Assembly: GCA_044225365.1 (NCBI GenBank)
Contig: JBGAIQ010000012.1
Coordinates: forward strand, 32,001 to 96,000
Direction of reading: 5' to 3'
Source: Planctomycetota bacterium
GTDB lineage: Bacteria; Planctomycetota; B15-G4; JADJEK01
DNA: 64,000 bases
Shown here one piece after another: positions 36,567 through 55,694 of this stretch (its first letter is position 1; each line of letters opens with the position of its first letter). Under the pieces are notes generated by a model, which was not told the origin of the DNA, made no database searches, and saw only the letters and a program-made list of their open reading frames with translations. Position numbers and translations under genes: made by a program.

Positions 36567-37670
36567 TCACGGCTTTTCGAGCAGCTTCTTCAAGCTCGCG
36601 GCGGCGCGGTCGTCCGGCTTCTTCGCGAGAGCGATGTTGGTGTTCGCCAACGCCCCTTGAATATCGCCCGCGCGGCGCTGCACGAGCGCTGCGGCGATGT
36701 AGCCTTCGGGGCGGTTCGGGGCGAGTGCGATGAGGCGGGCGGACGCGTAACGCAGCACGCTCTCATCCTCCAGCATTGCGCCGACGTCGACGAGCTTCAG
36801 CAACGCCTCGACATCTTCGGCCTGCGTGGAGTCCTTCGTGAGCGCGAGCAGAAGTGCCCGGGCCTCGACGGGCCGCCGCAGTTCGATGAGGCAGCTCGCG
36901 CGCAAGAGCTGCAGATCGCGACGCTGATCGTTCGGCGGCGTCGTGAGCACCTTTGCGAGCGCCGACTCGGCTTGCGAGTAGTGACCGAGTTGCGCGTGGA
37001 TTCGAGCGAGGTCCTCGAGCAGCGATGCGTCATCGGGATCGAGCGCGACGGCCTGCTCGAAGTGCTTCAGCGCTTCCTCGGGTTTCTTCTCCATCAGGTC
37101 GATGTGGCCGAGCGCCTGTTTGTAGCCGGCTTGCGATCCAGCATCGCCATGAGCCGTTTCGAGGAGATCTCGCGCTTCCGCGAACCGATGCAGTCCGATC
37201 AGGATCTCGGCCGTGACGAGACCGTACTTCGGGTTCGATGTGTCCTTGCCGAGAGCCGTTTGATAGTGCGACAGCGCCGAGTCGAGCTCGTTGATCCGCT
37301 CGTACACGACGCCTTTGTAGTATTCGATCTCCGCGTCGGCAGGATCGATCCGCGATGCCTTGTCGAGGCTGTCGAGAGCCGCGACCGAGATGCCCTTCTC
37401 GAGGAGGACGCGGGCCCGCAGGATGTGAGCGTTTGGAACGCGGTCGTAGTTCGCGAGCGAGCGATCGACGCTCGCCAGCGCGAGATCGAGATTGCCCGAG
37501 GTGAACTGCTGGAAGGCGAGATCGTAGTCCGCTGCGGCCTTCAGTTTCTTGTGCCGTAGGTCGGCCTGATCGAGCCCTTCCTGCGTGTACTTGCCGTGCC
37601 CACCGGTGCACCCGGTCAGCGTGAGAGCTGCGACGACGAAGATGCCTGCGAATTGGGGTCCGCGAAGCAT
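36567..37670 (-). CDS. TPR-repeat lipoprotein (TadD/pilotin-like)
   Basis: Lipobox LTGC; multiple TPRs; immediately downstream of the secretin gene. Confidence 0.85.
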   Translation of the reverse strand: MLRGPQFAGIFVVAALTLTGCTGGHGKYTQEGLDQADLRHKKLKAAADYDLAFQQFTSGNLDLALASVDRSLANYDRVPNAHILRARVLLEKGISVAALDSLDKASRIDPADAEIEYYKGVVYERINELDSALSHYQTALGKDTSNPKYGLVTAEILIGLHRFAEARDLLETAHGDAGSQAGYKQALGHIDLMEKKPEEALKHFEQAVALDPDDASLLEDLARIHAQLGHYSQAESALAKVLTTPPNDQRRDLQLLRASCLIELRRPVEARALLLALTKDSTQAEDVEALLKLVDVGAMLEDESVLRYASARLIALAPNRPEGYIAAALVQRRAGDIQGALANTNIALAKKPDDRAAASLKKLLEKP

Positions 37671-37741
37671 GGGAACTCCTGGCCCAGGATCGGGTCGCGA
37701 CGAAGAAGACGATGCGCGCGCGCTGCGCGAGAGGCCTCGAA

Positions 37742-39790
37742 TCAGTTGCCGCCGGTGCCGGCACCGCCGCCCGTGCCCCCGCCGTTGCCTGCTCCATTGC
37801 TGGGCGGCGTCGTCGGAGGTGCGTCGGCCGGGTTCTCGGCGGGCGGCTCGCTAGCGGGTTCGTCGGCGGCGGGTTCTTCGGGCGTCTCGACGCCCATCTC
37901 TTCCTCCGCCGGTACTTCCGCACCGCGCGCTTCGGGGAAGTCCTTGTCGAGCTCACCGGTGACGATGCGCTCCAGCATGCTGCGGGTCGGCCAATAGCGC
38001 TCGTCCGTGAGCTGCTCCTGGAGGCGAATCATCTCGGGCTGTTGCGGATGGAGCTGCAGCGAGCAGCGCAATTGGAAGCGTGCCCAGTCGTACTCGCCCT
38101 CGGAGGCGTTCTTCTGCGCGCGAAGATTGAACATCGCGCTCATCTTCTCGCGGCTCCACGGCAGGAGGCCGAGACGCGAACCGACGCGCACGCGCTCGTA
38201 GTAGGCGAGGCCTTCCTGGCCTTGCTGCGCGAGCACGTTCTCCGACATCACCGTCGGCTTGATCATGAAGATGATCTCGTCGCGCTTCAGGTGGTCGTCC
38301 TGACCTTCGAACGCGTGCCCGACGAGCGGGAGGTCGCCGGCCCAGGGGACCTGCGAACGGCTGCGTGAGACGTCTTCGCGGAACAGACCACCGAGGATCG
38401 CGGTGTGACCCTCCGGAACGAGCACGTCGGTGAGCACCGTCTGGATGTTCTCGTCCGGGATCTGCTGATTCACGCCGTTCTGCGATTCGACGTCGCGGAA
38501 CACGACCTGCGAGACCTTCGGTGCGAGCTCCATGCGCACCCGCCCGTCCTTCAGGACGAACGGCCGAATGTCGAGCTGAACACCCGTGTCGATGAACTTG
38601 ATCGTCTGCAGCACCTGGTTCTCGACGACCGTCGTCTCGAGGTAGCCGACGCGCGTACCCACGAGGACCTTCGCGCGTTGACGATTGAGCGCAAGGACCT
38701 TCGGATTCGAGAGGAGCGTCACGTCGGTGATCTGATCGAGCGCGCGGATGAAGACGCCGACGTCATCGCCCGCGGTGATCCCGAGCTTCAGCGTTCCCGC
38801 GCCCGCCGCGACGTTGCCGGGATTGCTGAGAACGAAGTTGCGGTTCAGGTTCGTGACCGGCGGTGCCTTCACCGTCGTGCCATCGGCACCGAGGCCGTTG
38901 ATCGTGTCGGGGAAACCGAAGAAGCTCGAGAACTGGACGCCGTCGAGCAGTGCGAAGTCCACGCCGAACGCGTTCTGTTCATCGAGCGTGACTTGGAGCA
39001 CCGTGGCTTCGATCAGCACCTGCTCGGGCTGCGTGTCGAGCGATCGCAGGAAAGACTCGACGCGTTCGACGTTCTCTTCGACGTCATGAATGACGATCGC
39101 GCTCTCCAGCGCGTATTCGTCCTTCTCGGGCGTGTAGATCCCGGAGTCGCTCGACTGACTGCTGCCGGAGTTCGACGAGCCGCCGGCCGCACCACCCGCG
39201 GCACTGCTTCCGCCGCCGCCGCTATCCCCGCCGAGATCCTTCGTCGGAGTGATCTTGCCCTTGGGGGAGAGCAGGGGCTGCGCATACTCCATCGCGTCCG
39301 CGGGGCGCAGATAGTCGAGATGGATGCGCCGGCTCGACAGATTGTTCGGCGAGGAGCGGCGCGCCGCGAGCTCGTCCTTCGTGAAGACGTAGATGACGTC
39401 CCCGTTCTGCTCCCAACCGAGACCATTCGGAGTGAGCAAGCCGTCGAGCGCCGCTTCGACCGTGACGCCGTAGAGCGTCGCGTTGACCGTCTTCTGCACT
39501 CCGTCGCTCGGGACGATGTTGCGTCGCGCGGCCACGGCAAGTTTCGAGAGGACGTTCGTGACGTCATCGTTCTGGACGACGATGTCGCACGTCCCGAACT
39601 CCGTGACGCGCACTTCGGACGAACGGATCACGAGTTTGTCGGCGGGATTCGCCTTGTTCTCCTGGGGGACGTTGACACCGGGAGTCGGTGTCTTCGCGTC
39701 CTGCGCCAGTGCGGCCGAGTGGGCAGCTCCGACGCAGAAGACCGACCAGAAGAGGAAAGCGTGCTTGTCGGATCGAGGGCGAAGAGTCAT
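37742..39790 (-). CDS. Secretin (GspD/PilQ-type architecture)
   Basis: Signal peptide ALA-Q; N0/N3-like domains; QVLIEATVLQV, LLSNPKVLALNRQRAKVLVG, FIDTGVQLDIRP, AILGGLF, VPWAGDLPLVGHAF, IIFMIKPTV. An alternative start lies at 39808. Confidence 0.93.
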   Translation of the reverse strand: MTLRPRSDKHAFLFWSVFCVGAAHSAALAQDAKTPTPGVNVPQENKANPADKLVIRSSEVRVTEFGTCDIVVQNDDVTNVLSKLAVAARRNIVPSDGVQKTVNATLYGVTVEAALDGLLTPNGLGWEQNGDVIYVFTKDELAARRSSPNNLSSRRIHLDYLRPADAMEYAQPLLSPKGKITPTKDLGGDSGGGGSSAAGGAAGGSSNSGSSQSSDSGIYTPEKDEYALESAIVIHDVEENVERVESFLRSLDTQPEQVLIEATVLQVTLDEQNAFGVDFALLDGVQFSSFFGFPDTINGLGADGTTVKAPPVTNLNRNFVLSNPGNVAAGAGTLKLGITAGDDVGVFIRALDQITDVTLLSNPKVLALNRQRAKVLVGTRVGYLETTVVENQVLQTIKFIDTGVQLDIRPFVLKDGRVRMELAPKVSQVVFRDVESQNGVNQQIPDENIQTVLTDVLVPEGHTAILGGLFREDVSRSRSQVPWAGDLPLVGHAFEGQDDHLKRDEIIFMIKPTVMSENVLAQQGQEGLAYYERVRVGSRLGLLPWSREKMSAMFNLRAQKNASEGEYDWARFQLRCSLQLHPQQPEMIRLQEQLTDERYWPTRSMLERIVTGELDKDFPEARGAEVPAEEEMGVETPEEPAADEPASEPPAENPADAPPTTPPSNGAGNGGGTGGGAGTGGN

Positions 39791-40151: not shown

Positions 40152-41300
40152 ATGACCGAGGCCGGCAATAGTGAAGCGACCACCCTGACCGAGCCCGCAC
40201 CGGTAATCGAGTCACCGGAGTCGAAAGCCTATCGCGCGGGCGTCGAGTTCTTCCTCGCGCCGCTCGTCCCGCTCCTCGCCGACGAGTCGATCTCCGAGAT
40301 CATGGTCAACGGTCCGAGCGACATCTACATCGAGCGTGGCGGCAAGATCGAGGTGAGCGGCGTCCATTTCCGGGACGAAGACGAACTGCTCGCCGCTGCG
40401 AACAACATCGCTCAATACGTCGGCAAGAGCATCAGCCCCGCGGATCCAATTCTCGACGGTCGTCTGCCCGATGGCTCCCGCGTGTGTATCGTCCTGGCGC
40501 CGATCGCGGCCGGCGGAACCTCGATCAATATTCGCCGCTTCCTGCGCCGCGCCGTCACTCCGCAGTTCCTCCTCGATCGCAAGGCGATCACGCCGGAGGC
40601 GCTCGAGTTCATCCTTCTTGCCGTCGAAGCGGAGCTCAACGTCGTCGTCAGCGGTGGTACGGGCTCTGGTAAGACAACCCTTCTCAACATCCTCTCGACC
40701 GCCTTCTCCGACAGTCAGCGAATCGTGGTCATCGAGGACACCCGCGAACTGCAGATCCAAAAGCGGCACGTCGTCCAGATGGAAGCGCGGCCGGCCGACG
40801 TGTACGGCAAGGGGCAGATCACGGTCCGCGACCTGTTCGTAACCTCCCTTCGTATGCGTCCCGACCGCATCGTGGTCGGCGAAGTCCGTCGCGGCGAAGC
40901 CCTCGACATGGTGCAGGCGATGACCTCCGGCCACCGCGGCTCGCTCGCCACCCTTCACGCCGACACGCCTTCACAGGCCTGCGGGCGTCTCGAGACGATG
41001 TGTCTCCTCGCGGACGTCGGACTACCCCTCCAGGCGCTGCGACGACAGATCGCGCTCGCGCTCGACATCGTCATCCAGGTCGCGCGTCTCCATGATGGAC
41101 GCCGTCTCGTCACGCACATCTCGGAGATCGAACTCGACGAAGCCACGCTCACGTATCAGATCCACGACATCTTCCATCTCGACACCAGCGACGGCACACC
41201 GCGACTCGTCTACACGGGACGCAAGCCGAAGCTCGCGGCCGAGATCGGCTGGCGCGGACTCAGTTCAAAAGTTCGCGAGACGAAGGCAATCTTCACCTGA
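40152..41300 (+). CDS. cpaF: CpaF/TadA family pilus ATPase, short form
   Basis: [58 protein letters not shown]. Confidence 0.95.
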   Translation: MTEAGNSEATTLTEPAPVIESPESKAYRAGVEFFLAPLVPLLADESISEIMVNGPSDIYIERGGKIEVSGVHFRDEDELLAAANNIAQYVGKSISPADPILDGRLPDGSRVCIVLAPIAAGGTSINIRRFLRRAVTPQFLLDRKAITPEALEFILLAVEAELNVVVSGGTGSGKTTLLNILSTAFSDSQRIVVIEDTRELQIQKRHVVQMEARPADVYGKGQITVRDLFVTSLRMRPDRIVVGEVRRGEALDMVQAMTSGHRGSLATLHADTPSQACGRLETMCLLADVGLPLQALRRQIALALDIVIQVARLHDGRRLVTHISEIELDEATLTYQIHDIFHLDTSDGTPRLVYTGRKPKLAAEIGWRGLSSKVRETKAIFT

Positions 41301-41444
41301 TATCGGTTATCGTGACCTCGCACCCCCGGTCGACATCGCGTCGATCGCGGAGAGCTTGGGTTCACGAATTCGGGCGATTTCGCCCGCCGTGGATCGAGTG
41401 GGTCCGGTGTTCCACCCATGGCTTCGGGTGGATCGAGAGATCGA

Positions 41445-41654
41445 GTGAATACGGAAACCGAGAATCAGTTCCTCGCGACGACGCGCCAACTGCCGGAGCT
41501 CGCCTCCGACGAGAGCGGCCAGGTCGTCATCGAGTGGACGTTGATCACTGCTACCGTGGTGATCCCGATGGGACTCATGGGTCCCGGGCTCGTCAACATG
41601 ATGTTCTACTACTTCTATCGCATCGCCGGGACCATCGCGCTGCCCTTCCCGTGA
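41445..41654 (+). CDS. Flp-type pilin / minor pilin
   Basis: GTG start; DESG|QVVIEW cleavage motif with +5 Glu followed by a hydrophobic helix. Confidence 0.75.
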   Translation: MNTETENQFLATTRQLPELASDESGQVVIEWTLITATVVIPMGLMGPGLVNMMFYYFYRIAGTIALPFP

Positions 41655-41740
41655 CCACCCGTGAGTTCGAGTTCGCGAGCTGCGTCGTCGATGCAGCGAC
41701 AAGACAAGACGTGAATCGCCCGCAAAAGGAGAATCCTGCC

Positions 41741-41968
41741 GTGTCCAACGAAACCACGACCCGTCCGGTGTCTTCCCTCAACCGCTTCAAGAACGCGATG
41801 CGCGAGCTGCATGCGGACGAATCGGGACCGAACACGGTCGAGTGGATCCTCCTGATCATCATCGCGCTCGTTCTCGTCGTCGCGATCTTCGTGTTCGCGA
41901 ACTTCGTGATCGACAAGTTCAAGCAGAAGGAAAACCAGGTCACTTCGGACGCCTTCTTGACCAAGTGA
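41741..41968 (+). CDS. flp: Flp family type IV pilin (probable major pilin)
   Basis: AAGGAG RBS, GTG start; DESG|PNTVEWILLIIIALVLVVAIF; followed by a stem-loop. Confidence 0.88.
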   Translation: MSNETTTRPVSSLNRFKNAMRELHADESGPNTVEWILLIIIALVLVVAIFVFANFVIDKFKQKENQVTSDAFLTK

Positions 41969-42036: not shown

Positions 42037-42828
42037 ATGGATTCCGACACGCTTCCTCCAGCCACGACGGTCGCTACGCCCTCGGGCGAGGCGGACGCCG
42101 TGGTGAATCCGCCGAGTTCGACGGCGGAATCTCCGACGGGGAGTCCGGCGGTTGCGATCGACGCACGCGTCGCCTGGATCGCGGGACTCTGCCTCACGGC
42201 GGTGGTCGCATCGTCGCGTCAGATCCTCGCGAAGACGCCGGATCATGGGTACTTCGCAGACTCCATCGCGTGGGTCGTCCTCGGCACGGCGGCCGCGCTC
42301 GACATCGCGTTCCGCCGCATTCCGAACGTTCTCACCTATCCCGCGATCTTGCTGGGACTGCTCATCAACGTCGTGATGCCGGCCATCACCGCGGTGATCG
42401 GACCGAACGTCGTCCAATCGTGGCTCGGCGGCAGCGATACGCCGCGCGACGGACTTCTCGGCTTCGGCTCGTGCGCGATCTTCGGGCTCGTGAGCTTCAT
42501 GTTGCGCGGGGTCGGAGGCGGCGACGCCAAGACGCTCGGCGCGTTCGGCGCATTGCTTGGTTTCTCGCGAGCTTGGCCCGCCCTCTTCAACTGCCTGCTC
42601 GTCGGCGCCGTGATCAGCATCGTCAATCTCGCGGTGCGCGGCGAGTTCATCCGCAAGCTGCAAGCGCTGTTCTGTTCCATGTTCACCGCCGTGATCCTGT
42701 CGCGGCGTCCCGATCACGTTCAGGTGTTCGCGAATCGCGAAGCGCCGTTCGTGCTCTCGCTGTTCCTGGGTTTCGCGCTATCGCGATGGGTGGAACTCCA
42801 CCGCTTCGTGTTCGGATTCATCGGGTGA
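42037..42828 (+). CDS. Prepilin peptidase (A24, TadV/CpaA-like)
   Basis: LDIAFRRIPNVL and GGGDAK (the two catalytic Asp); multi-TM; adjacent to the pilins. Confidence 0.93.
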   Translation: MDSDTLPPATTVATPSGEADAVVNPPSSTAESPTGSPAVAIDARVAWIAGLCLTAVVASSRQILAKTPDHGYFADSIAWVVLGTAAALDIAFRRIPNVLTYPAILLGLLINVVMPAITAVIGPNVVQSWLGGSDTPRDGLLGFGSCAIFGLVSFMLRGVGGGDAKTLGAFGALLGFSRAWPALFNCLLVGAVISIVNLAVRGEFIRKLQALFCSMFTAVILSRRPDHVQVFANREAPFVLSLFLGFALSRWVELHRFVFGFIG

Positions 42829-42831
42829 CGC

Positions 42832-43752
42832 ATGCGCTCTCGTTTTGACCGCCTGCTGCGCGTGGCTCCTGCGACCGTCGCTCTCTTGACGGTCGGAGTC
42901 GTCGCCACGATGCTCGCCTCGCGACCCGATCGACTCGCGCAGTCGTTCGGTCTCGACTTCGCCGAAGAAAGCGCGCGACTCGTCATCGGTTGCATGGTCG
43001 TCGCCTCCGTGGCGTTCCTCGCGGCGGCGTACAAGCTGCTGCGAACCCTTCTCGCGTCGGGGAAGAGCTTCGTCGAATGGCGCAAGCGCAACGAACCGCA
43101 GAAGGGTTTTGCCGAGGCCGGCGTGGTGATGATCGAGTTCACGCTCCTGGCGCCCACGGTCTGGCTCATCATGGCGATCGTGGTGCAGCTCGCGCTCATC
43201 GCCGAAGCCACGCTCGTCGTCCGCTATGCCGCTTACACCGCAGTGCGCGCGGCGATCGTCCGCACCGAGCGGAACGCGATCGGGCAGGAGGATCTCGGAG
43301 TGAGTCCCGGCAAGGTAGAGGAGTCCGCAAAGCTCGTGCTCTGCTCCCTCTCACCCAAGATCCCCAACACCGACAACGACTCCGCGCACGCGATGCTCAA
43401 CATCTTCGCCGCGCAGAACGGCGTGTGGGGCGACAAGAATTTCCATCGGCGATATCAGTACGCGGATGACTCGACGACCGTGAAGACCACGCTCGACGAT
43501 CCGCCGATCGAGATGCCTTTCGTCGGGGACACGGGCCTTCCGAACCTGTTCGCGCCGAAGCTCGTCGAATGCGAGGTCACGTACCTGTACGCGACGCAGA
43601 TCCCCGGCGTCACGCTCCTCCCTGGCATCCTTCAGGTTTCGGACGGCTACAAGGCATTCAAGATCATCCAGCGCGTGCGAATGCAGAGCACGGGTGCGCG
43701 TCAATCCAATCCCATCGGCGTCGCCGGCACGATGAATACGATCTTCCCATGA
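42832..43752 (+). CDS. TadE-like pseudopilin with long membrane-spanning N-terminal extension
   Basis: AG|VVMIEFTLLAP...VVRYAAYTAVRAA TadE motif at about residue 97. Confidence 0.85.
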   Translation: MRSRFDRLLRVAPATVALLTVGVVATMLASRPDRLAQSFGLDFAEESARLVIGCMVVASVAFLAAAYKLLRTLLASGKSFVEWRKRNEPQKGFAEAGVVMIEFTLLAPTVWLIMAIVVQLALIAEATLVVRYAAYTAVRAAIVRTERNAIGQEDLGVSPGKVEESAKLVLCSLSPKIPNTDNDSAHAMLNIFAAQNGVWGDKNFHRRYQYADDSTTVKTTLDDPPIEMPFVGDTGLPNLFAPKLVECEVTYLYATQIPGVTLLPGILQVSDGYKAFKIIQRVRMQSTGARQSNPIGVAGTMNTIFP

Positions 43753-45101
43753 AGCTACTCACGAATCGCGAACGCAATCTCGTGACCGATCTGAAGCCGC
43801 ATGCGCCGAGCGCGGTGGATGTCTTCGCGCGACTTCACAGCGAGGAGAACTCGGGGTCGGATGTGCCCGCGCGAGTCACGGGCTTCGCAGCACGCTTGCA
43901 CGGCGATCGCCGCGGCGCGATCACGGTGCTCTTCATCTTGCTCGCATTCGTCTTCTTCATGGGTCTCGCCGGCGTTTGGAACATCGGGCAGGCGACGAAG
44001 TCGCGCATGCGCACGCAGGTCGCGGCGGACACCTCCGCCTATGGTGCCGCGACCTGGATGAGCCGCGGCATGAATCAGATCACCGCCGCGAACATCCTGA
44101 TCCAGCGCAACGCGAGCGCGTTCGCGATCGCGTTCGACTGCATTCCGATGGGCATCGTCTGGCTCATCTTGGTGATCAAGAATTGGGCCGAGGCCGTCGA
44201 GGACGCGTGCGGTGCGTGTCTCATCGCATGCGCCGCCTGCGGCGCTGCCGTCGCCGCCTATATTGCAGCGGTCGAAGTCCCGGTTGTCGCGAACTACATC
44301 GCCCAAGCTTGGCCGGTCGCGGCTTCGAACCTGACGACATTCTGGAGTCGCGTCGAGACACTGAAGGAATTCCAGGACAAGTGGGTCCAGGAGATACCGA
44401 ACGTCATCGAAGCGCAGCGCGGCAAATTCGCGGATCATTACGGCGTCACGCTCCGCTACACGCAACCGGGCGCGAGCGATGGCAAGGTCCGTCTTCCGGT
44501 CGAAGAGGGCAATTTCCTGACGGCGCTTCCGACGTTCACCTACCGGTTCTTCTCCGACGACGACAACATCCCCGATCACTACGATTTCGATATCGTTCAG
44601 CTCGGCAAGGCGGAGGACGAGTGGAAGAAGCTCGAAGTGGTGGGGTACGTCTTGGGACTCATGTTGAACGGCATGAATCACTACACATTGTCCACCCAGA
44701 CGGGGCCGTTCGAGCAGGCGCCCTCGTCGCTCGAGGACTGGGAGAAGTTCTCGCTCGTCGCGACCGCTCTGTCCGAGAACATCAGCGACAAGACGCGCAT
44801 CGCGCCCGGCATCTTCACCCACGCGTTCGCACCGGACGACGTCAACATCGCCTACGCCCAGGCGGAGACCTACAACGGTCCTTCCGAAGCGCTTGCCAAG
44901 ATTCCCGGGCTCGGCGCCATCACGAATCTGATGCCGTTCCGGGTCTGGACGTTCTTCGGCTTCGAATGGCAGCCGCGTCTCACGGTCGGCGACCAGGTGA
45001 AGTCGGCGCTCGAGAACGACAGCAACATGGCGAACATCTGGGGAAGGATCCACTTCGACAACGGACAGTTCGACGACGCTCCCAAGATGGCGAACCACTG
45101 A
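43749..45101 (+). CDS. TadG-like pseudopilin (Tad N-terminal domain)
   Basis: RRG|AITVLFILL...NIG...TQVAADTSAYGAA; ATGA overlap with the upstream gene. Confidence 0.85.
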   Translation: MKLLTNRERNLVTDLKPHAPSAVDVFARLHSEENSGSDVPARVTGFAARLHGDRRGAITVLFILLAFVFFMGLAGVWNIGQATKSRMRTQVAADTSAYGAATWMSRGMNQITAANILIQRNASAFAIAFDCIPMGIVWLILVIKNWAEAVEDACGACLIACAACGAAVAAYIAAVEVPVVANYIAQAWPVAASNLTTFWSRVETLKEFQDKWVQEIPNVIEAQRGKFADHYGVTLRYTQPGASDGKVRLPVEEGNFLTALPTFTYRFFSDDDNIPDHYDFDIVQLGKAEDEWKKLEVVGYVLGLMLNGMNHYTLSTQTGPFEQAPSSLEDWEKFSLVATALSENISDKTRIAPGIFTHAFAPDDVNIAYAQAETYNGPSEALAKIPGLGAITNLMPFRVWTFFGFEWQPRLTVGDQVKSALENDSNMANIWGRIHFDNGQFDDAPKMANH

Positions 45102-45102: not shown

Positions 45103-45711
45103 ATGAGCAATCATCGTTCAGCGCGGCGTCGCAGCGCACGGTCCGAACGCGGCACCGTCGCGGCCGAGTCGAGCCTGGTCCTGATCGTCCTCCTCTTCTT
45201 CCTCCTGATGTCTCCTGCGATCTGGAAGATGTGGTGGAACGAGCACATCGCGCGCGCCGAGGCGGAACGCGACACGTTCCGGCTGACCTCGACTCCCGCC
45301 GACATCAGCTCCGCGACGAATTTCCAGCCCGAACTCGATTTCGCGACGCAGGGCGACTTGATCGGCCTTGGCTTGTGGGAATTGCACAAGCCGGAAACCG
45401 CCGATATCCCGAACATCTCCGACATCAGCTCCGGCAACGAGCTCAAGGACTTCCCGAACAAGGTCGTGATTGGGCGAGCGACGCGACACGTCCAGTACAG
45501 CTCTGGCTGGAGTCAGTATCGCGGCGAGTTCGACATCTTCCGCTACTCGTACACCCTGCGCCCGAGCTGGAATTGGCAGGGGTACCCGCTCTTCCACACG
45601 CAGGACATGTCGGAGCGCGGCAAGATCAAGGACTGGATGGAAACGGCGTATCGCGACACGCTCACCAGCACGGTGACCGACAAGCTCGCGCTCAAGACCG
45701 ATCCGTTCTGA
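45103..45711 (+). CDS. TadE/TadF-like pseudopilin
   Basis: Basic leader, ERG|TVAAESSLVLIVLLFFLL. Confidence 0.75.
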   Translation: MSNHRSARRRSARSERGTVAAESSLVLIVLLFFLLMSPAIWKMWWNEHIARAEAERDTFRLTSTPADISSATNFQPELDFATQGDLIGLGLWELHKPETADIPNISDISSGNELKDFPNKVVIGRATRHVQYSSGWSQYRGEFDIFRYSYTLRPSWNWQGYPLFHTQDMSERGKIKDWMETAYRDTLTSTVTDKLALKTDPF

Positions 45712-47190: not shown

Positions 47191-47201
47191 GGGCGAACAT
47201 C

Positions 47202-47225
47202 GTAGGGGCGCACGGCAGTGCGCCC
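47202..47225 (+). repeat. GTAG-family REP element
   Basis: GTAGGGGCGCACGGCAGTGCGCCC, one mismatch to the copy at 11656. Confidence 0.85.
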
Positions 47226-47296
47226 GATATGGGATCACACAAAACGTCGTGCGTCCGCAGAACGGCCATCGAACGGCAACGCCGGACATGCAACGG

Positions 47297-47385: not shown

Positions 47386-50355
47386 CTAGAGTGATTGTAG
47401 GTGAATCATGTCACGGTCAAGGACGAAGGGACGCGACAGGACGAACACCTGGTCCTTCGTGAACTTGTCCGACTTCTTGAACTGAACGTACATCGACGTG
47501 TCGCCATAGGTCAGGTGCGCATGGACGCGAACGTCCTCGGCGCCCTGCTTCTGCAGCAGTTCCTCGAGGCGATGGCAGACGGCCCAGGCGTCGACACGGA
47601 CTTCCATCTGGAGGCGCGGCTTCGCCGGTTCGAGTCGCGCGAGGAGTCGGTTGTACTCCTCTTCGCTGAACACGGGACCCGTGAGCCGGATCTTCGTGAG
47701 GTGTGGGACGAGCTCGACCTTCAAGCATCCGTTCGGAACGTTGATCTCGAGGAACGCCTTGAACTGCTCCGCCGTGAGGCCGAGCAGCGTTCCACGGTCG
47801 ATCAGGTCGAGGCCGGGATCACCCGTCATCATTCGCGCTGCGGCCATCGCGAGCTTGCCGGAGTCGCCGCCCGCGCTCTCGATCGCCGACAGCGTCGCGA
47901 GTTCGCGATGGATGTCGGGCAGTCGCAGCTTGGCGTCGGCGTTGCCGATCGCGGCGAGCTCGATCGTCTGCTGCAGCTCGGCGAGCAGCTCCTTGCGACG
48001 CTTCGGGATCGCGCCGGAGGATTGGTCGGCCTTCTCCAGTGCGTTGAGATCGACCGAGATCGCGCGCATTCGCGTGTACGCGGTGTTGTCGCCGCCCATC
48101 GCGCGTTGGATGACCTCACCCAGTTCGCGGATCAGGTCCTCGCGTTTCTGGAACATCGAAACGAGCGGCTTGCCCGTGCGCTTCGCGTCCTCCGCTTCGG
48201 CGATCTGGTTCATCTCGGCGCGAATCTCGCGCAGGCGTTGGATCGCCGCGGGATCTCCCGCAGCCGCACGATCGGCGAGCGCGGCCATCTCGCGGACGAG
48301 AGCCGAGCGCCGGTCGTTGCCGCCGCCCGCCTTCATGTCCTCGGCCTCGAGCGAGGCGAGCTCGGTCTGAACTTCCTTCAACCGCTTGATCGCGTCGGGA
48401 TCGCCCTTCGCGGCCTTGTCGAGGAGGTCGTTCATCTCGTTGAGGAGCGCCGCACGCTTCGCTTCGCGGGCTGCGATCGCGTTCGGATCGCCCTGCCCCG
48501 AACCGCCGCCCTTCTCGACGCTCTTGTTGGCGAGCTTGCGCAGCTCCTCGTTGATCTCCTTCACGCGCTTCGCGGCGTTCTTGTCGCCCTGCGCCGCGAG
48601 CTTCATCTGCTCGTCGAGCTCCTGCTGGAGAGCGACGCGCTTCGCCGCGTCGGCGTCGCCCGTCATCGGCTCGAGCTGAGCGAGCTCTTTTCGGATCTGC
48701 TCGAGGCGCTTGATCGCGGCCTGGTCGCCGTTCGCCGCCTTCTCGACGAGCGCGTCCATCTCGGAGAGCAGCTTCTCGCGCTTGTCGGCGATGCGCTGCT
48801 CGGAGAGGGCCGCGACGACGATCGTCACCGCGCGTTCGGGATCGTCACCCGTTTGCTCGGTGTAGTCGACCGTCTTGTAGCGCGGGTGCTCCATCTGGAT
48901 GCGGAACTGGCCGTGAGCGATCTGCACCTGGCCGTTGCCGTTCTGATCGAGCGGCACCGGGATGGCGTCGTTCGGTTTGCCGTTCTCACGGATCGTCACG
49001 TCCCACGCCGGCACGGGCGGCACGGTCGAGAACTTGACGAGCACCGTCTTCGGCGCCGCGCGCGAGATGTTGAACAGCTTGTCGGCGAGCACCGTCGTGC
49101 CCTCGACGACGACGACCTTCGCGGGGGCATCGCCCACCGCGCCCACCGGGATCGTGCCGGTGAACTGCCCGGAGTCGTCGACCTGCAGCGGATCGCCGTT
49201 CTCGGAGTTGCCTTTGTGCTTCACCTTCAGAACGGCGTGTTCCGGTTTGTCCTTCACGGTGCCGCGGATCACCACCTCGGGGCGATCCGTCGTGAAGGTT
49301 TCCTTCTCGACCGTGACCACGGGTTTTACCGAGACCGACCGCCACCAGATGAAACCGAGCGTTCCGACCGCGGCGATCACCCACAGCAGGATCGAGAGGA
49401 GGACGAGCACGTTCGCCTTCGCGGGCGGCGCATCCATCTCCTCGAGTTCGCCGGGCGTGCGCCCGCTTCCGCGCATCACGAACCCGCCGATCGCGCCGAG
49501 TCCTTCCTCGGCCGAAGCGAGGCGTTCGCGCAGCGGCTTCGCGAGCATCTTCGCAATGAGGTTCGAGAGGTCCTCGGGGAAGTCCGCGATGACGTCCTTG
49601 ATCTTCGGCAGCGTCATCTGCGCCGAGGCATGCCAGTACATCCACTTCGGCTTCTCGTCCATCGACGTCGTTTCCGCGGCCGCCTTGGTCGCGTACGGGT
49701 CGTAGATCGACGGGAACTGCTTGCGGTAGAGGGTGCGCCCGAGCGCGTACTCGTAGGCCGCCATGCCCAGCGAGTAGAGGTCCATCTTCGGCGACTCTTG
49801 GCCGAGCGACGAATCGAGCAGCTCGGGGGCCGCGTACTGGACCGTCGAGAAATTCATCGTGTCTTCGACGCCCTGGCGCTTCGCGAGACCGAAGTCCGTG
49901 ATCTGCCAGTGACCGTGACGCGACCGCACGATGTTGTTCGGCTTGATGTCGCGATGCAGGATCTGCGGATCGGCGTGATGCACCACGGACAACGCTTTCA
50001 GCGTGTCGTGCAGCATCTCGCGCACGTCCTCGGGGCTCGCCGGCTGATCGGAGATCCAGTGCTTCAGGTTCTTGCCCGAGAGCTCCATCCCGATCCACGG
50101 ACCGACTTCGTCGTCGATGCCGAAGCCGAAGACCTCGACGATGTACGGGCTCGACCCGACGGCGAGCAGGAGTTCGACCTCCTTGCGCAGGACGTCGAGC
50201 TGCTCTTCGGAATCGGCCTTCCAGTTCTGCAGGATCTTCACGGCGGCGGGACGCGTGATCCCGTGGCCCATGTGCTGGATGGCCTTCCAGACGACGGTGT
50301 ATCCGCCCGGATCGATCTGTTCGGTCAGTTCGAAGTCACCGAGTCGTGTCTTCAT
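47386..50355 (-). CDS. Membrane-anchored Hanks-type Ser/Thr protein kinase with large ectodomain
   Basis: AAVKIL, HRDIKPNN, DFGLAK, YAAPE, DLYSLG; one TM helix; beta-rich domains, six helical repeats and C-terminal alpha/beta domains. Confidence 0.95.
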   Translation of the reverse strand: MKTRLGDFELTEQIDPGGYTVVWKAIQHMGHGITRPAAVKILQNWKADSEEQLDVLRKEVELLLAVGSSPYIVEVFGFGIDDEVGPWIGMELSGKNLKHWISDQPASPEDVREMLHDTLKALSVVHHADPQILHRDIKPNNIVRSRHGHWQITDFGLAKRQGVEDTMNFSTVQYAAPELLDSSLGQESPKMDLYSLGMAAYEYALGRTLYRKQFPSIYDPYATKAAAETTSMDEKPKWMYWHASAQMTLPKIKDVIADFPEDLSNLIAKMLAKPLRERLASAEEGLGAIGGFVMRGSGRTPGELEEMDAPPAKANVLVLLSILLWVIAAVGTLGFIWWRSVSVKPVVTVEKETFTTDRPEVVIRGTVKDKPEHAVLKVKHKGNSENGDPLQVDDSGQFTGTIPVGAVGDAPAKVVVVEGTTVLADKLFNISRAAPKTVLVKFSTVPPVPAWDVTIRENGKPNDAIPVPLDQNGNGQVQIAHGQFRIQMEHPRYKTVDYTEQTGDDPERAVTIVVAALSEQRIADKREKLLSEMDALVEKAANGDQAAIKRLEQIRKELAQLEPMTGDADAAKRVALQQELDEQMKLAAQGDKNAAKRVKEINEELRKLANKSVEKGGGSGQGDPNAIAAREAKRAALLNEMNDLLDKAAKGDPDAIKRLKEVQTELASLEAEDMKAGGGNDRRSALVREMAALADRAAAGDPAAIQRLREIRAEMNQIAEAEDAKRTGKPLVSMFQKREDLIRELGEVIQRAMGGDNTAYTRMRAISVDLNALEKADQSSGAIPKRRKELLAELQQTIELAAIGNADAKLRLPDIHRELATLSAIESAGGDSGKLAMAAARMMTGDPGLDLIDRGTLLGLTAEQFKAFLEINVPNGCLKVELVPHLTKIRLTGPVFSEEEYNRLLARLEPAKPRLQMEVRVDAWAVCHRLEELLQKQGAEDVRVHAHLTYGDTSMYVQFKKSDKFTKDQVFVLSRPFVLDRDMIHLQSL

Positions 50356-50358: not shown

Positions 50359-51174
50359 CTATTCCTTCACCTGTTTCGAAGTCTCTGCCAATCGCTTCCG
50401 AACGAACCAGACGAGCGCGTCCGCGATGGTCTCGTCGGCGTTCGCGTCGACTTGCGCCGACGCTGCGGACTGATCCCAGCCCATCACCACGCCGAGAGTT
50501 CGTCGCGGGTCGCTTCCCGTTGCTTCGGGGAATCGATCCGTACTGAGGCCGCGTCCCGTGGGCGCACGCAGTCCGCAAAGTGCGGCCTGCAGTTGCGACC
50601 AACGGGTCGTCGCCATCTTGTAGTTGCCGGCCTGCTCGAAGCGCCACGCATCGTTGTAGAGCGTGACCGCTTCTGGGGGCAGGCGATTCTCGTTGACCCA
50701 CTTCTCCATGCGATCCCCGATCCGCATGTAGGCCTGACGCCAGTGGACCGCGGTCATCGGCACCGGCTGAGCCTGCTTGTCGCCGGAGAGGAGCATCGCT
50801 CCGCCGATCCCGAGGATCAGCAAGATGACGATGAGCAGGAGGAGGAGTGAGGTGCGCGACAGTCCGCCCGGCCCGGCCGCGGCGTGGCTCTCGACGACGA
50901 GCTTCATCTTCGGCGAGATCTGGATCTCTTCGCCGCTCGCGACGCGAGTCTCTTCCGTGATGCGCTTGCCGCGGACCTTGGTTCCCGCTGCCGCGAGGTT
51001 GACGACGACGAGCCGCGTGCCGGTATCGCGCACGACGAGGTGTTCCCACGCGATCGATTCGTCGCGCAGTTGCACGCGCGCCGTGGGCGCTCGGCCGATC
51101 ACCACATCGCCGTTCTCGACGCGATGGCTGGTTCCGTCATCCGCTCCGCCAATGACTTTGAGGTAGAAGACCAT
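50359..51174 (-). CDS. FHA-domain single-pass membrane protein
   Basis: ATG 51174; VIGRAPTARVQLRDESIAWEH FHA pattern; TM LLLLLIVILLILGIGG; helical extracytoplasmic domain. Confidence 0.88.
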   Translation of the reverse strand: MVFYLKVIGGADDGTSHRVENGDVVIGRAPTARVQLRDESIAWEHLVVRDTGTRLVVVNLAAAGTKVRGKRITEETRVASGEEIQISPKMKLVVESHAAAGPGGLSRTSLLLLLIVILLILGIGGAMLLSGDKQAQPVPMTAVHWRQAYMRIGDRMEKWVNENRLPPEAVTLYNDAWRFEQAGNYKMATTRWSQLQAALCGLRAPTGRGLSTDRFPEATGSDPRRTLGVVMGWDQSAASAQVDANADETIADALVWFVRKRLAETSKQVKE

Positions 51175-51191
51175 GTCTCTTTCCGTCGGCC

Positions 51192-52130
51192 TCAGCCGAT
51201 GTTCAGACCTTCGTACCAGTACCGAACGATGAACGGCGCGAACAGGAGTTCGAGCGTCGCCGCGAAGACGAGCATGCCCGGCACGAGCACCATGACCTTT
51301 GCCTTGCCCGCGGTCTCCGTCGCTTCCTGGACTCGACGGACCCGCACCGCATCGGACAGTCGCTCGAGCGTCTCCGCGATCGGCCGTCCGAGTTCCTCGG
51401 ACTGGATCACGTCGTCGGTGAACTGCCGCACGACCGGCAACGGCGCGCGCTTCGCGAGATTCTCGTAGGCCTGCCGCAATGTCACGCCCATCTCGAGATC
51501 CGTGAGGATCGCCCGGAACTCGGTGCCCACCGCTTGGCCCTGGAAGTCGCTGCCGACCCGATCGATCGCGATCGGCATCGAGGCACCCGCGCGCATCGTG
51601 AGGGTCAAGAGGTCGAGAACGTAGGGCATCGTTCGGGATATCGACTTCGCGCGCTCGACGCCCGCAGTCGAAAGTTGCGCCGAAACGAGGCTCGGACCCG
51701 CGAGCAGGAAGACGAGGGCGAACGGCGCCGCGAGCGGCTTCAGCATCAAGAGGATCAGCAGGAACGGAACGGTCAGCACGAGGCCGACGAGGAACGAGAG
51801 CGCGAGCACCTCTTCGTCGTCGAGGCCACCCGGCCATCCCGCCTCGGCATAACGAGAACGCAGCGACTCGCGGAACGAGTCGACGGGGAGCCTTCGCGTA
51901 ATGACGGTGAAGGCCGGCAGGATCGCGAGGACCGACTTCGAAAGGCTCGACTGCGCCGTGAGGCTCTCGCGGCGCAGTCGGCGCTGCGCGTCGCCGATGA
52001 CGGCGGCGACCGGAACGGACGACAGCTTGAGGCGTCGGACGAGCAGATAGACGACGATCGCGACGGAGATCCCGAGGAGGATGGCGCAGAGGAACGGTAG
52101 CAGTGCGAACAGGCGGTCAGACGTCGGCAT
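51192..52130 (-). CDS. tadC: TadC (T2SSF domain) platform protein
   Basis: MPYVLDLLTLTMRAG, QSEELGRPIAETL, KAKVMVLVP. Confidence 0.92.
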   Translation of the reverse strand: MPTSDRLFALLPFLCAILLGISVAIVVYLLVRRLKLSSVPVAAVIGDAQRRLRRESLTAQSSLSKSVLAILPAFTVITRRLPVDSFRESLRSRYAEAGWPGGLDDEEVLALSFLVGLVLTVPFLLILLMLKPLAAPFALVFLLAGPSLVSAQLSTAGVERAKSISRTMPYVLDLLTLTMRAGASMPIAIDRVGSDFQGQAVGTEFRAILTDLEMGVTLRQAYENLAKRAPLPVVRQFTDDVIQSEELGRPIAETLERLSDAVRVRRVQEATETAGKAKVMVLVPGMLVFAATLELLFAPFIVRYWYEGLNIG

Positions 52131-52959
52131 TGACGATCCTCCAGGCCCAGAACGTACCGGCGGCGGTGAGCAGCACCGCGATGAGGAGCAGCGCCTGCCC
52201 GAAGGGCCGCGTGAACAGCCAGCCGACGGCCTGCATGTCGATCACCGTCGTGAAACCGAGCATGATGAACGGAGCGAACGCGAGCACCTTGATGTTCATG
52301 CGACCTTCCGAGGTCGCGACGAACACTTCCTTGCGCATGCGATCGACCGATTCGAGAGAGTGCGCGAGACGCTCGAGCGTCTTCACGACGTTGCCGCCCA
52401 TGCGCTGGTTGATGACGAGCGCGGACGCGAAGAGCGTGAAGTCCTGCAGCGCGAGCCGGCGCTTCGCTTCCTCGATCGTCGAGGCGAAGTCGGCGCCCAT
52501 GTTCCAGTAGTTCGCGATGATGCGAAACTCGGTGCGCAGCGGTTCTTCACCGCGCTCGGCGACGCGTTCGATCGCCTGCACCAGCGACATGCCGGACGCG
52601 ACGCCCGAGCTGAGCTGGAGCACGGCCTTCGGCAACTGATCGTTCAGGAGCTTGCGCCGCTTCTGCCACGCGCGGTCGAGCAGGATCTTCGGCATGATCA
52701 CGCCGACGAACCAGAACGCGAGCAGGATCATCGGCACGGGCAGGAACAGGACGATCACGATCGGTGTGACGAGGGTGAAGATCCAGAAGATCGTCACGCT
52801 CCTGCGACCGTCGTAGGGCTCAGGCGACAAGCGCCAGTGCATGTGCTCGAGATGGGCGACGTCGCGCCGGAACTTCGCGAGGATCTGCCAACGCATCGAG
52901 ATGATCAGCAGCGTGATCGACAGACCGATCATCGCCGCGATCGCGAGACTCATCATCAT
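52117..52959 (-). CDS. tadB: TadB (T2SSF domain) platform protein
   Basis: QLPKAVLQLSSGVASGMSLVQA, EPLRTEF, INQRMGGN, TSEGRM. Confidence 0.92.
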   Translation of the reverse strand: MMMSLAIAAMIGLSITLLIISMRWQILAKFRRDVAHLEHMHWRLSPEPYDGRRSVTIFWIFTLVTPIVIVLFLPVPMILLAFWFVGVIMPKILLDRAWQKRRKLLNDQLPKAVLQLSSGVASGMSLVQAIERVAERGEEPLRTEFRIIANYWNMGADFASTIEEAKRRLALQDFTLFASALVINQRMGGNVVKTLERLAHSLESVDRMRKEVFVATSEGRMNIKVLAFAPFIMLGFTTVIDMQAVGWLFTRPFGQALLLIAVLLTAAGTFWAWRIVNADV

Positions 52960-54845
52960 GCGCTCGCCCTCCCGAACCAACGATCGAGATCGATGAGCCG
53001 CCGCTCGACGAGGTCGGCCATGAACGACGGCATGTAACCCGTGAGTTCGAGTCGCGGATTCTTGTTGCCGCCGGTCTGGCGCATGATGTCGCGCACCTCG
53101 ACCTCGCCGGTGTGCGGATGGATCCCGATCACTTCGGTGATCTGCGTGATGAGGCGCTTGCCGCTCTTCAGGCGGCGGATGAACACGATCATCTCGACGG
53201 CTTGCGAAACCTGACGGCGGATCGCGGCGATCGGCATCTCGACGGCCATGAGGCACATCGTTTCGATACGGGCGATCGCGTCGTTCGCGGAGTTCGAGTG
53301 GATCGTGGTCATCGACCCGTCGTGGCCCGTGTTCATCGCCTGCAGCATGTCGAACGCTTCTTCACCACGACACTCACCGACGATCACGCGATCGGGGCGC
53401 ATGCGCAGGGCGTTCTTCACGAGGTCGCGGATCGTGTACGAGCCGGTGCCTTCGACGTTCGACGGCCGCGTCTCGAGCGACACGACGTGTTCCTGCTGCA
53501 GCTGGAGCTCGGCGGCGTCCTCGATCGTCACGATGCGCTCGTCCGACGGGATGAACGCGGAGAGCACGTTGAGGAGCGTCGTCTTGCCGGAGCCGGTGCC
53601 GCCCGCGACCACGATGTTCTTGCGCGAGACCACGGCCGCTTCGAGCAGCGCATAGGCCGAATCCGTCATCGTGCCCCATTCGACGAGATTGCGAGCGTTG
53701 GGCCGCCGCGTGGGGAAACGCCGGATCGTGAGGCAAGGCCCCTTGAGCGCGAGGGGCGGGATGACGGCGTTGACGCGCGAGCCGTCCTTGAGGCGGGCGT
53801 CGACGAGCGGCGTCGAACGATCGATGCGACGGCCGAGCGGCGCGACGATGCGTTCGATGACGGCGACCAGTGCTTCGTCGCCGAGGAAAGTGCGGTTCGA
53901 GCGCAGCACCTTGCCGGCGCGCTCGACGTACACCTGCGTCGGGCTCACGATCATGATTTCCGTGATCGACGGCGTATCGAGCAGGTCCTGCAGCGGACCG
54001 AGCCCGAACACCATGTCGCAGATGACCTTCTTCAGGAACCGCGCGACGAGATAGAACTGGACGTTCTCGGGCGTTTCGTCGATCACGCCCGTCACGTTCT
54101 CGCGCAGACCGGTGTTGATCTTCTCGAAGTCCTCGCCGAACGAGTCCTTCGTGCCGAGCAGCTTCATGCGCTTCATGAGGCGACGCGTGAACTCGTCCGC
54201 GGCTTCCTCGAGCGCGATGTTGACTCCGGGGACGTTGATGCGACCGACGTCGAGCGTCGACGCCGCAGCCTGCTTCGAGAGCGCCGTGAGCAGGCGGTTC
54301 TCGTACACCATCGTGAGCATGCGCTTGCGCGTGAGCGGCGAGCCGAACAGCCGCTGCTGATACTCGCCGTGCATCAACTCATCGATGAAGTTGTTGATCT
54401 GCTGGAGCGACTCCTCGCTCGCTTCGAGATTCTCCTTACCCGCCCGCCGCAGGTCGAGCTTGCGGAGGACTTCGGTGTGGAGTTCGCGCTGCAGCGCGTT
54501 CAGGTCCTCGATCGCCGCGTCCGCTTCGGACGTGTCGGGTTTGTCGTCCTCCTGGAGGAGGTTGATCACGAACTCGGCGAGACGAACCTGGCTGATCGGC
54601 TTCAGCAGCGCCGACTTGCCGGGCGCGAGCTTCACGCCGTCGACGACGGCGGTCGTCGCCGCCGGATGCACGAGCAGTTCCCAGCCCTGCTCGGTGCGAT
54701 CGACCTGGATGTGGACCCGCGAGACGAAGCGCGAGGTCGTGAGCGGGATCGCGCACTCCTCGCTGCGTCCGATCGTGAATCCGGCCACGCCTTCGTAGCC
54801 GACCCACTGCTTGTTCTTGAGCGTGTCCTGGATGACGACGCGCAT
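52956..54845 (-). CDS. tadA: FHA-domain-fused CpaF/TadA ATPase
   Basis: N-terminal FHA (TIGRSEEC...VSRVH); [57 protein letters not shown]. Confidence 0.95.
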
Positions 54846-54851
54846 CTTGGC

Positions 54852-55694
54852 TCAGCCCCCCTGCGTGCCGCTCGCCGCGGGCGCGGGGGAGTTCGGCGCC
54901 GGAACGCGAGAGTTGGGCCGCAGGAGCAGGGTGATGTTGTTGGCGCTCGCCGACATCGCCTGGATCATCTCGACGGCCTGTTCGGGCGTGAGTTCGAGCG
55001 TGATCACGGAGCCATTCGATCCGCCGCCTTCACCGCCGGTGAACAGGAACTGCTGACGGCTGCCGCCGAGGCTCGAACCGATGCCGACGATGCGGATGTT
55101 CGAGAGGATCTCGGTCGACTTGAACTCGTCGGGGTAGGCCGTCTTGTCGGCGAGCTTCGAGAAGATCGCGCCGATCGCGGCCGAGGGGTTGTTCGGATCG
55201 ATCGTCGGATTGGCGCCGACGGCCTTGTTCTCGCGCGGCAGGTGATAGGTGGCGATCACGTCGACGCGATCGCCCGGCAACAGCAATCCACCCATGAGGT
55301 TCTCGTTGCTGACGCGCACGCCGAGAGCGCGCGTACCGGGCGCGAGGTTCGTGTCCTGGATCGGCTTCAGGTGGGCGTACTGGAGCGGCGTGCCCGCCGG
55401 GATCGGCATTCCGATCCGCTGGCCGCGCAGCGACTCCTTCTCGTCGGCCTTGTACAGCGTCTTCACGAACGGAGCGAGCGTGGAGCCCGCGGGGACCTGC
55501 ATCGCCTGGAGGTCGCGATCGGGATCGATCGTGTGGTTCGCCTCGAGGTCGTTCACGACGCGGAGGACGTTCTCCTTCGGTTCGGGAGGCAGGCCGGTGT
55601 TCGATGTCGCTCCCTGGATGTAGGTGAACGCGAGTCCGGTGGCGAAGACGCCGGCGACGACTGCGATCAGCAGGAGCAACTTGTTGTTTTCCAT
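54852..55694 (-). CDS. cpaB: Flp pilus assembly protein CpaB/RcpC
   Basis: N-terminal TM, SAF-like region, PGTRALGV, LLPGDRVDVI, ITLELTPEQA, ITLLLR. Confidence 0.93.
   Translation of the reverse strand: MENNKLLLLIAVVAGVFATGLAFTYIQGATSNTGLPPEPKENVLRVVNDLEANHTIDPDRDLQAMQVPAGSTLAPFVKTLYKADEKESLRGQRIGMPIPAGTPLQYAHLKPIQDTNLAPGTRALGVRVSNENLMGGLLLPGDRVDVIATYHLPRENKAVGANPTIDPNNPSAAIGAIFSKLADKTAYPDEFKSTEILSNIRIVGIGSSLGGSRQQFLFTGGEGGGSNGSVITLELTPEQAVEMIQAMSASANNITLLLRPNSRVPAPNSPAPAASGTQGG

Follow-up and report, generated by a model that had tools for sequence, protein, structure and literature searches.

A Tad/Flp pilus locus of Planctomycetota with a Ser/Thr kinase and FHA proteins in its platform operon and no detected TadZ/CpaE

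Introduction

Tad pili function in adhesion and biofilm formation and, in Myxococcus, in prey killing. This work describes a Tad/Flp pilus locus of a Planctomycetota bacterium that lies in a stretch of DNA of 64,000 nt. This whole stretch is called the window, and the coordinates of the genes are positions in the window. The platform operon of the locus also encodes an FHA-fused motor ATPase, a membrane protein with an FHA domain, and a membrane Ser/Thr kinase. An original prediction made from the sequence alone had described the locus as a Kil-like Tad system wired to a kinase-FHA circuit.

The FHA-fused motor has a described counterpart. The class III CpaF proteins consist of an FHA domain, a disordered linker, and the CpaF core, which comprises a three-helix bundle, an NTD, and the ATPase domain, and are found mostly in betaproteobacteria according to the accessible text of their report (PMC12019362). 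The Kil apparatus of Myxococcus xanthus is encoded by two separate clusters and is used for prey killing. It includes the FHA-fused ATPase KilF and many FHA proteins, for which an upstream signalling cascade was proposed, and its hallmarks are a single ATPase, a short secretin without the N0 domain, and the absence of TadG, as given in the main text of the report (PMC8460266). The words 'kinase', 'TadZ', and 'CpaE' are absent from that main text, and the supplementary tables might list a kinase. Neither FHA nor kinase occurs in the accessible text of a 2025 paper on the Kil pilus (PMC12075869). In the accessible text of a 2025 review, the kil FHA proteins are called 'promising candidates' and the word 'kinase' is never used (PMC12428579).

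Control by kinases and FHA proteins is described for the type VI secretion system (T6SS) and proposed for variants of the type VII secretion system in the accessible text of PMC11217815. The threonine-phosphorylation pathway of the T6SS is cited in the accessible parts of both PMC8460266 and PMC11217815. In Bdellovibrio, a ParA/MinD-like TadZ is fused to TadA in the ATPase TadZA, which binds RomR, according to the accessible part of a preprint that mentions no kinase there (bioRxiv 10.64898/2026.07.08.737194). A literature search of limited coverage found no report of a Tad operon that encodes a Ser/Thr kinase of its own or of an operon-encoded kinase for an FHA-fused CpaF, and none on Phycisphaerae pili with FHA. 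The FHA-fused CpaF itself has already been published, and as far as this search reaches the operon-encoded kinase would be the new aspect.

Results

Platform operon with a kinase and two FHA proteins

A complete Tad/Flp (type IVc) pilus gene set was identified at 36567-55694 using a listing of open reading frames (ORFs) and Pfam scans. The three blocks of the predicted layout were all found in place, and the two CpaF-type ATPases, the FHA-fused motor, the FHA membrane protein, and the membrane Hanks-type kinase were all confirmed. Block 3 is the platform operon on the minus strand. It consists of the genes of CpaB/RcpC (54852-55694; Pfam RcpC 52.8 bits and SAF), the FHA-fused CpaF motor or ATPase 2 (52956-54845; T2SSE 197 bits, FHA 27 bits), the platform proteins TadB (52117-52959; T2SSF 67.4 bits) and TadC (51192-52130; T2SSF 50.5 bits), the membrane protein with an FHA domain and a transmembrane helix (FHA-TM; 50359-51174; FHA 38.8 bits, Yop-YscD_cpl 33.2 bits), and the membrane Hanks-type Ser/Thr kinase (47386-50355; Pkinase 116.8 bits). 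The neighbouring genes of this block overlap or sit 3-17 nt apart, and the kinase, both FHA readers, and the motor belong to one translationally coupled operon. The long ORFs of tadB and FHA-TM, as well as that of the secretin in block 1, overstate the genes and the real starts are internal. The real start of tadB is MMMSL at 52959, which gives an overlap of 4 nt with the stop of the ATPase gene.

The FHA-fused CpaF has 629 aa. Its FHA domain spans residues 24-89 and has the pocket residues for phosphothreonine (Arg, Ser, and His), and the CpaF core extends from residue 271. The pocket of the FHA-TM protein, which has 271 aa, exhibits Arg, Ser, His, and Asn. The kinase has 989 aa and its catalytic set is intact (Lys, alpha-C Glu, HRD-x-K-xx-N, and DFG).

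The operon had been predicted to end in a terminator. A terminator-like hairpin was found at 47320-47300 on the minus strand, 66 nt past the kinase stop, with seven pairs (six G-C) followed by a T-rich tail. It is the best terminator-like site of the region, but such sites are not in excess overall (14 against 11.3 in shuffled sequences). A search for sequencing runs that contain the locus listed DNA runs and no RNA run.

Conservation of the kinase/FHA module

The window proteins were placed on the flanks of related loci using tblastn. The full-length FHA-fused CpaF was identified in five of the 41 genomes of the same order, including the genome of the window. Its N-terminal 270 residues were matched in 15 of the 401 sampled Planctomycetota genomes (12 of 288 genera). 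The FHA-fused CpaF is also found in five named records among the best 80 of 597 CpaF relatives. Cluster records for ten distant representatives gave one organism name, Vicinamibacterales.

The kinase-operon type was defined by at least 47% identity to the window motor over the full length. The order cpaB, FHA-CpaF, tadB, tadC, FHA-TM, kinase is kept in all 12 related loci with enough flank (L011, L012, L013, L014/L095, L015, L091, L092, L096, L097, L098, L099, and L106). The FHA-TM gene of L106 fell under the tblastn score filter and was confirmed by its reading frame, and L093, which ends inside tadC, was left out of the count. The 12 loci fall into about ten lineages at genus level and do not count as independent samples. 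The genome of the window, which has 6.5 Mb, gives 13 FHA matches and about 50 high-scoring segment pairs in the tblastn search for kinases. Since FHA and kinase genes are this sparse in the genome and the same order occurs in 12 of 12 loci, the arrangement exceeds chance. Kinase and FHA genes that are not syntenic with tad genes in relatives had been named as an outcome that refutes the original prediction, and this outcome did not occur.

The other parts of the machine are found with the module less regularly. An orthologue of the second motor, ATPase 1, lies within six of the 12 loci, and the secretin and TPR genes are directly upstream of cpaB in four of them. No obvious cargo gene is conserved on the flanks that were mapped with the window proteins.

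A second and more distant type, with an FHA-fused CpaF at 39-46% identity, was identified in seven loci (L094 and L100-L105). An FHA protein follows tadC in three of the four loci that were scanned downstream, at positions 9624-10568 of L101, 9545-10501 of L103, and 9396-10334 of L104. The kinase of this type, found in L100, L103, and L094, has a different sensor with Ig repeats and an FGE-sulfatase domain. Both types of FHA-CpaF locus are carried by the genomes G171 and G377. The original interpretation is partly supported: a TadZ-less, two-motor Tad system, probably wired to phospho-signalling, is conserved in a sparse set of Planctomycetota.

Absence of TadZ/CpaE

The original prediction had stated that no TadZ/CpaE is visible at the locus. 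TadZ/CpaE was not found anywhere in the genome, an assembly that is 94% complete, using Pfam AAA_31 and CbiA, and neither model matches on the contig of the window (C76). The three strongest AAA_31/CbiA matches of the genome are on contigs C21, C28, and C17, and none of them is near a CpaF gene. These ParA-like genes are of the ParA/Soj type, the Mrp/ApbC type, and the polysaccharide tyrosine autokinase type. The gene on contig C17 encodes 443 aa, which is a TadZ-like length, and it was rejected as TadZ because it is the polysaccharide tyrosine autokinase (TIGR01007, 164.7 bits). Three further weak CbiA matches (C95, C61, and C100) are under the cut-off and lie outside this identification. A search with Pfam TadZ_N matches none of the 14 control genomes and is uninformative.

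In five of five relatives, the same AAA_31 search placed a gene of the ParA/MinD type immediately upstream of the plain CpaF gene, and the CpaE-homologue model TIGR03815 is the best or near-best match, under its cut-off, for two of these five proteins. TadZ-like proteins from three relatives gave no tblastn match (E up to 0.01) in the window or in 21 loci of the FHA type. Given TadZ beside plain CpaF in five of five relatives and no match in the FHA-type loci, TadZ and the FHA/kinase module are, as judged by these searches, mutually exclusive within the order. The genome also has no set of tadB, tadC, cpaB, flp, and peptidase genes other than the one at this locus. A tadZ elsewhere that completes an ordinary Tad system, a second of the three refuting outcomes that had been named, was likewise not encountered.

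Co-variation of kinase and FHA residues

The catalytic and phosphothreonine-pocket residues were compared across the 12 loci. The kinase Lys, HRD Asp, and DFG Asp are kept in eight of them, i.e. the genome of the window and seven others. In these eight active-type loci, the Arg and Ser of the motor FHA domain are kept in all eight and the Arg of FHA-TM is kept in seven. The remaining four loci (L015/L098 and L096/L097) belong to one family and encode pseudokinases in which the HRD Asp and DFG Asp are lost in four of four. The Arg and Ser of FHA-TM are also lost in all four, and the motor FHA domain has lost either the Arg or the His. The whole operon is still kept in order in these loci. The co-degeneration fits a functional link from the kinase to the FHA domains, and the natural pseudokinase variants could show what persists once the signal is lost.

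Several Thr residues are conserved only where the kinase is active: Thr167 and Thr172 in the activation loop, Thr10 and Thr293 in the motor, and Thr259 in TadC. The two conserved activation-loop residues exhibit the same split between active-type and pseudokinase loci. The split is confounded because all loci with a dead kinase are from one family, and the activation-loop pair alone is used, as a hint.

Two CpaF-type motors

The best solved relatives of both ATPases are CpaF structures (E 1e-96 and 1.5e-83). The FHA-fused CpaF is matched to them from residue 271 onward. ATPase 1, encoded at 40152-41300 on the plus strand (382 aa; Pfam T2SSE 173 bits), is matched over residues 149-458 of the 501-residue CpaF chain and is a minimal CpaF-type motor without the N-terminal extension. 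The tree of the ATPases was constructed from an alignment of 57 rows and 439 columns under LG+G4, with support values from the Shimodaira-Hasegawa-like approximate likelihood ratio test (SH-aLRT). It was rooted with two PilT-like genes, which lie on a very long branch. All 30 FHA-fused CpaFs fall into a single clade (support 96), whose sister group is 19 plain CpaFs from 14 phyla (80), and the kinase-operon type is a subclade of the FHA-fused CpaFs (98). ATPase 1 branches with four orthologues in a deep clade of its own (100), apart from the FHA-fused and the plain CpaFs alike, and for this reason ATPase 1 is regarded as an old CpaF paralogue and not as a recent duplicate. It probably serves as an additional motor, either for retraction or with constitutive activity.

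A third CpaF-like ATPase of 358 aa is encoded on contig C71 (positions 6375-7451 of L107, minus strand) and is the deepest branch in the tree. It is an orphan with a GSDH/PKD protein and a di-haem oxidoreductase-like gene as neighbours and no tad genes nearby. There are 16 matches to the T2SSE family in the 6.5-Mb genome. Nine of them are full-length and GspE/PilB-like, which indicates that many type IV filament systems are present in the genome.

Architecture of the FHA-TM protein and the kinase

The model of FHA-TM, built from an alignment of 25 rows, has a mean predicted local distance difference test score (pLDDT) of 89.7. From the cytoplasmic FHA domain (residues 1-97), the chain runs through a transmembrane helix (107-129) to a periplasmic domain made of helices and a small hairpin. 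Solved relatives were found for the FHA part only, among them FHA domains that bind phosphothreonine and the YscD and PscD cytoplasmic domains of the type III secretion system (T3SS). The fold search of the whole model gave FHA domains only and no match for the helical periplasmic domain. In the ESM Atlas, this domain gave scores of at most 0.83 and no informative cluster.

The kinase consists of the kinase domain (residues 9-280), a transmembrane helix at about 313-337, two Ig-like domains, helical-hairpin repeats, and a C-terminal alpha/beta domain. The AlphaFold2 model of the periplasmic part (residues 338-989; 18 rows; mean pLDDT 82.7) exhibits two Ig-like sandwiches, about 13 helices, and the C-terminal alpha/beta domain. 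There are six repeats of about 42 residues each at residues ~520-850, with the consensus L..E...L...AA.GDP.A..RL..I..EL. The C-terminal alpha/beta domain is conserved and holds an invariant Arg570. The orthologues vary from 766 to at least 1102 residues, and one open frame of 1658 residues ends at a contig end. The differences in length and the varying number of repeats sit in the repeat region, so the stalk is variable in length while both ends are kept. The fold search of the periplasmic model gave only generic Ig-type matches with low template modelling scores, and no match for the C-terminal alpha/beta domain.

Genes of blocks 1 and 2

Block 1 is on the minus strand. The secretin of the RcpA/CpaC type is encoded at 37742-39790 (ORF to 40183; Pfam Secretin 125 bits) and has an N0/STN-like domain, with matches to STN (28.1 bits, cut-off 28.4) and Secretin_N (21.1 bits, cut-off 28.2) that are under their cut-offs. 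The likely start is 39790, the Met that precedes the signal peptide, which follows Met132 of the ORF translation, and the matches of the orthologues begin at residue 189. The TadD-like TPR lipoprotein (36567-37670; Pfam TPR_2 and TPR_19 among others) has an N-terminal signal peptide with the lipobox LTGC and is a candidate pilotin of the secretin. The TPR gene adjoins the secretin gene here and in L014/L095, L015, L098, and L106.

Block 2 is on the plus strand. The gene of ATPase 1 is followed by two genes for Flp-like prepilins. Prepilin 1 (41418-41654; start codon uncertain) exhibits ESG followed by QVVIEW and a hydrophobic helix, has no Pfam match, and has an orthologue in L011. Prepilin 2 (about 41801-41968) exhibits ESG followed by PNTVEW and a hydrophobic helix, scores 22 bits for Flp1_like (cut-off 33.5), and has an orthologue in L098. 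Both carry ESG, four residues, and EW before the hydrophobic helix; the processing site of Flp pilins is of the G/XXXXEY type. The prepilin peptidase of the TadV/CpaA type (42037-42828; Peptidase_A24 44.9 bits, over the cut-off) is without a methylase domain. It is followed by a TadE-like pseudopilin whose real start is probably internal (42832-43752; TadE 24.9 bits, over the cut-off), a TadG-like protein (43749-45101; Tad PF13400 27 bits, over the cut-off), and a third pseudopilin-like protein (45103-45711). The last is TadF-like by position and has no Pfam match; it qualifies only by its N-terminal motif, a G followed by TVAAE and a hydrophobic helix. Its orthologues are found in L011 and L014.

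All genes named in the original prediction were found, but a gene for a GT-C (PMT_2/ArnT-like) glycosyltransferase at 45721-47289 on the minus strand (PMT_2 60.5 bits) had been omitted. It separates the kinase gene from block 2. L011 and L014 have no match at this place, and in both the kinase and pseudopilin genes are direct neighbours. As judged by this gene order, the glycosyltransferase gene adjoins the Tad system without being a conserved component of it. The enzyme might glycosylate the pilins, or the gene may be an unrelated insertion.

Neighbouring genes

The next gene upstream of cpaB, in the same orientation, belongs to the endonuclease/exonuclease/phosphatase family (55944-56891, minus strand). 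On the other side of the locus, an ORF for a glutamine-dependent NAD synthetase (33808-36489, plus strand; CN_hydrolase and NAD_synthase) has about 240 residues before its first domain, and its real start may be internal. Two adjacent genes for large FG-GAP repeat proteins of 904 and 884 aa are located upstream of the locus (21731-27038, plus strand), and a further FG-GAP protein is encoded on contig C28.

Discussion

Proposed mechanism

The locus is read as a Tad/Flp machine in which a phosphothreonine module stands in place of the ParA-like organiser TadZ/CpaE, so that pilus assembly would be controlled by phosphorylation. We give this reading, which is drawn from gene content, gene order, and residue conservation, a probability of roughly 0.65. 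In the proposed mechanism, the module would fill the TadZ/CpaE place in the pilus machine of a Phycisphaerae-type planctomycete. The membrane Hanks-type kinase would autophosphorylate or phosphorylate a component of the machine, and the FHA domains of the motor and of FHA-TM would then dock on the phosphothreonine, by which the motor would be recruited or licensed at the platform. We infer from the sequences that the FHA domains read the kinase. The periplasmic part of the kinase, with its two Ig-like domains, stalk of variable length, and conserved distal domain, would be the input side, and the minimal second CpaF would serve as an additional motor (retraction or constitutive). The output is most likely regulated adhesion or surface attachment, rather than that of a killing device.

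A more detailed version is offered tentatively and is more doubtful than probable. A receptor kinase that spans the periplasm may respond to the state of the machine at its outer-membrane end, or to contact with another cell or a surface. Docking of the FHA domains on phosphothreonine may replace TadZ, and a two-motor pilus may be licensed and positioned in this way, in which the FHA-fused CpaF would drive extension and the minimal CpaF retraction. If this is true, class III CpaF motors would gain their first genetically defined kinase partner, and the locus would be a model for the unexplained FHA proteins of Kil. The proposed circuit is a concrete and testable case of a type IV filament machine that would be controlled by phosphorylation. 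Its value is limited in that the carriers seen are uncultured metagenome-assembled genomes.

Points against phosphorylation control and other explanations

Several observations weigh against a phosphorylation-controlled Tad machine without TadZ. The co-degeneration is confined to one family and amounts to about one evolutionary event. The module is kept in entire lineages despite a dead kinase and degenerate FHA pockets, so part of its role must be structural and independent of phosphothreonine. No PP2C phosphatase was found in the locus, and the single PP2C_2 match of the genome is on contig C64. The 'NG' motif of the motor FHA domain is non-canonical, and both Flp genes score under the Pfam cut-offs. 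A TadZ may also lie on the ~6% of the genome that is missing from the assembly.

Some of these observations would be expected if the kinase and FHA-TM were mainly structural, i.e. a scaffold independent of phosphorylation that anchors or positions the motor in the stead of TadZ, comparable to the FHA domain of YscD. The intact gene order in the four loci without the HRD and DFG Asp, where the FHA pockets are degenerate, agrees with such a scaffold. So do the match of FHA-TM to Yop-YscD_cpl, the YscD and PscD cytoplasmic domains among its fold matches, and the lack of a phosphatase in the locus. However, the catalytic residues and the FHA Arg and Ser are conserved here and in seven other loci, which is unexpected for a pure scaffold, and we consider this explanation unlikely.

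The original prediction had called the locus Kil-like, which can be taken to mean a contact-dependent killing apparatus of a predatory planctomycete that is fired on prey contact. The likeness is real in the FHA-fused ATPase and the further FHA protein, both common to the Kil of Myxococcus, and the upstream phospho-signalling cascade proposed in the main text of PMC8460266 is in line with it. It ends at the two ATPases, the secretin with the STN/N0 match, and the TadG-like protein of this locus. No toxin, lysin, or T3SS-like genes were found among the scanned flanking genes, and nothing nearby suggests predation. According to the main text of the same report, Kil-like systems are described only in delta-proteobacterial predators (PMC8460266). 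A killing apparatus is improbable. Least probable of all is a pseudopilus-driven protein secretion system resembling the type II secretion system instead of a surface pilus, which would agree with the three minor-pilin-like genes, the two motors, and the 16 T2SSE matches in a genome rich in type II/IV secretion ATPases, but is at odds with a core that is all of the Tad type (CpaF, TadB/C, CpaB/RcpC, Flp-like pilins, and an A24 peptidase without a methylase domain) and with the lack of an obvious conserved cargo gene in the locus.

Comparison with known systems

The phosphorylation-controlled Tad machine proposed here can be compared with five described systems. The canonical Tad systems (cpa of Caulobacter and tad of Aggregatibacter) share CpaF/TadA, TadB/TadC, CpaB/RcpC, the secretin with the TPR lipoprotein, the putative Flp-like pilins, the A24 peptidase, and the TadE/TadG-like proteins with this locus. 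However, TadZ/CpaE is present there and was not found here, and one bifunctional motor there compares with two CpaF paralogues here. This locus also differs in a motor with an FHA domain and in having FHA-TM and a receptor Ser/Thr kinase inside the platform operon.

The window motor shares the layout of class III CpaF, with an FHA domain at the N-terminus that a linker joins to the CpaF core, and it groups with 29 other FHA-fused CpaFs. It differs in its setting. No kinase partner is named in the accessible text of PMC12019362, whereas the motor described here is from Planctomycetota and its operon also encodes a second FHA protein and the presumed kinase. The Kil system shares a Tad-like machine, an FHA-fused ATPase, and a further FHA protein in the cluster. 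The window locus fails three features of Kil, as it has two ATPases, an N0/STN-like secretin, and a TadG-like protein. The TadZA of Bdellovibrio is similar in that the Tad motor carries a fused organiser module at its N-terminus, which links it to a partner for positioning or signalling. The module there is TadZ, in contrast to the FHA domain here, which presumably reads the kinase.

The threonine-phosphorylation pathway of the T6SS comprises the kinase PpkA, the FHA protein Fha1 (Fha), the phosphatase PppA, and TssL. It shares with the proposed mechanism a membrane Hanks-type kinase with a periplasmic domain and an FHA protein that binds a phosphorylated component, leading to assembly. A dedicated PP2C phosphatase is present there and none is in this locus, and the machine cores are non-homologous, so the likeness is an analogy of mechanism only. 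As such an analogy, the T6SS pathway is probably the closest one to the way in which this locus would work.

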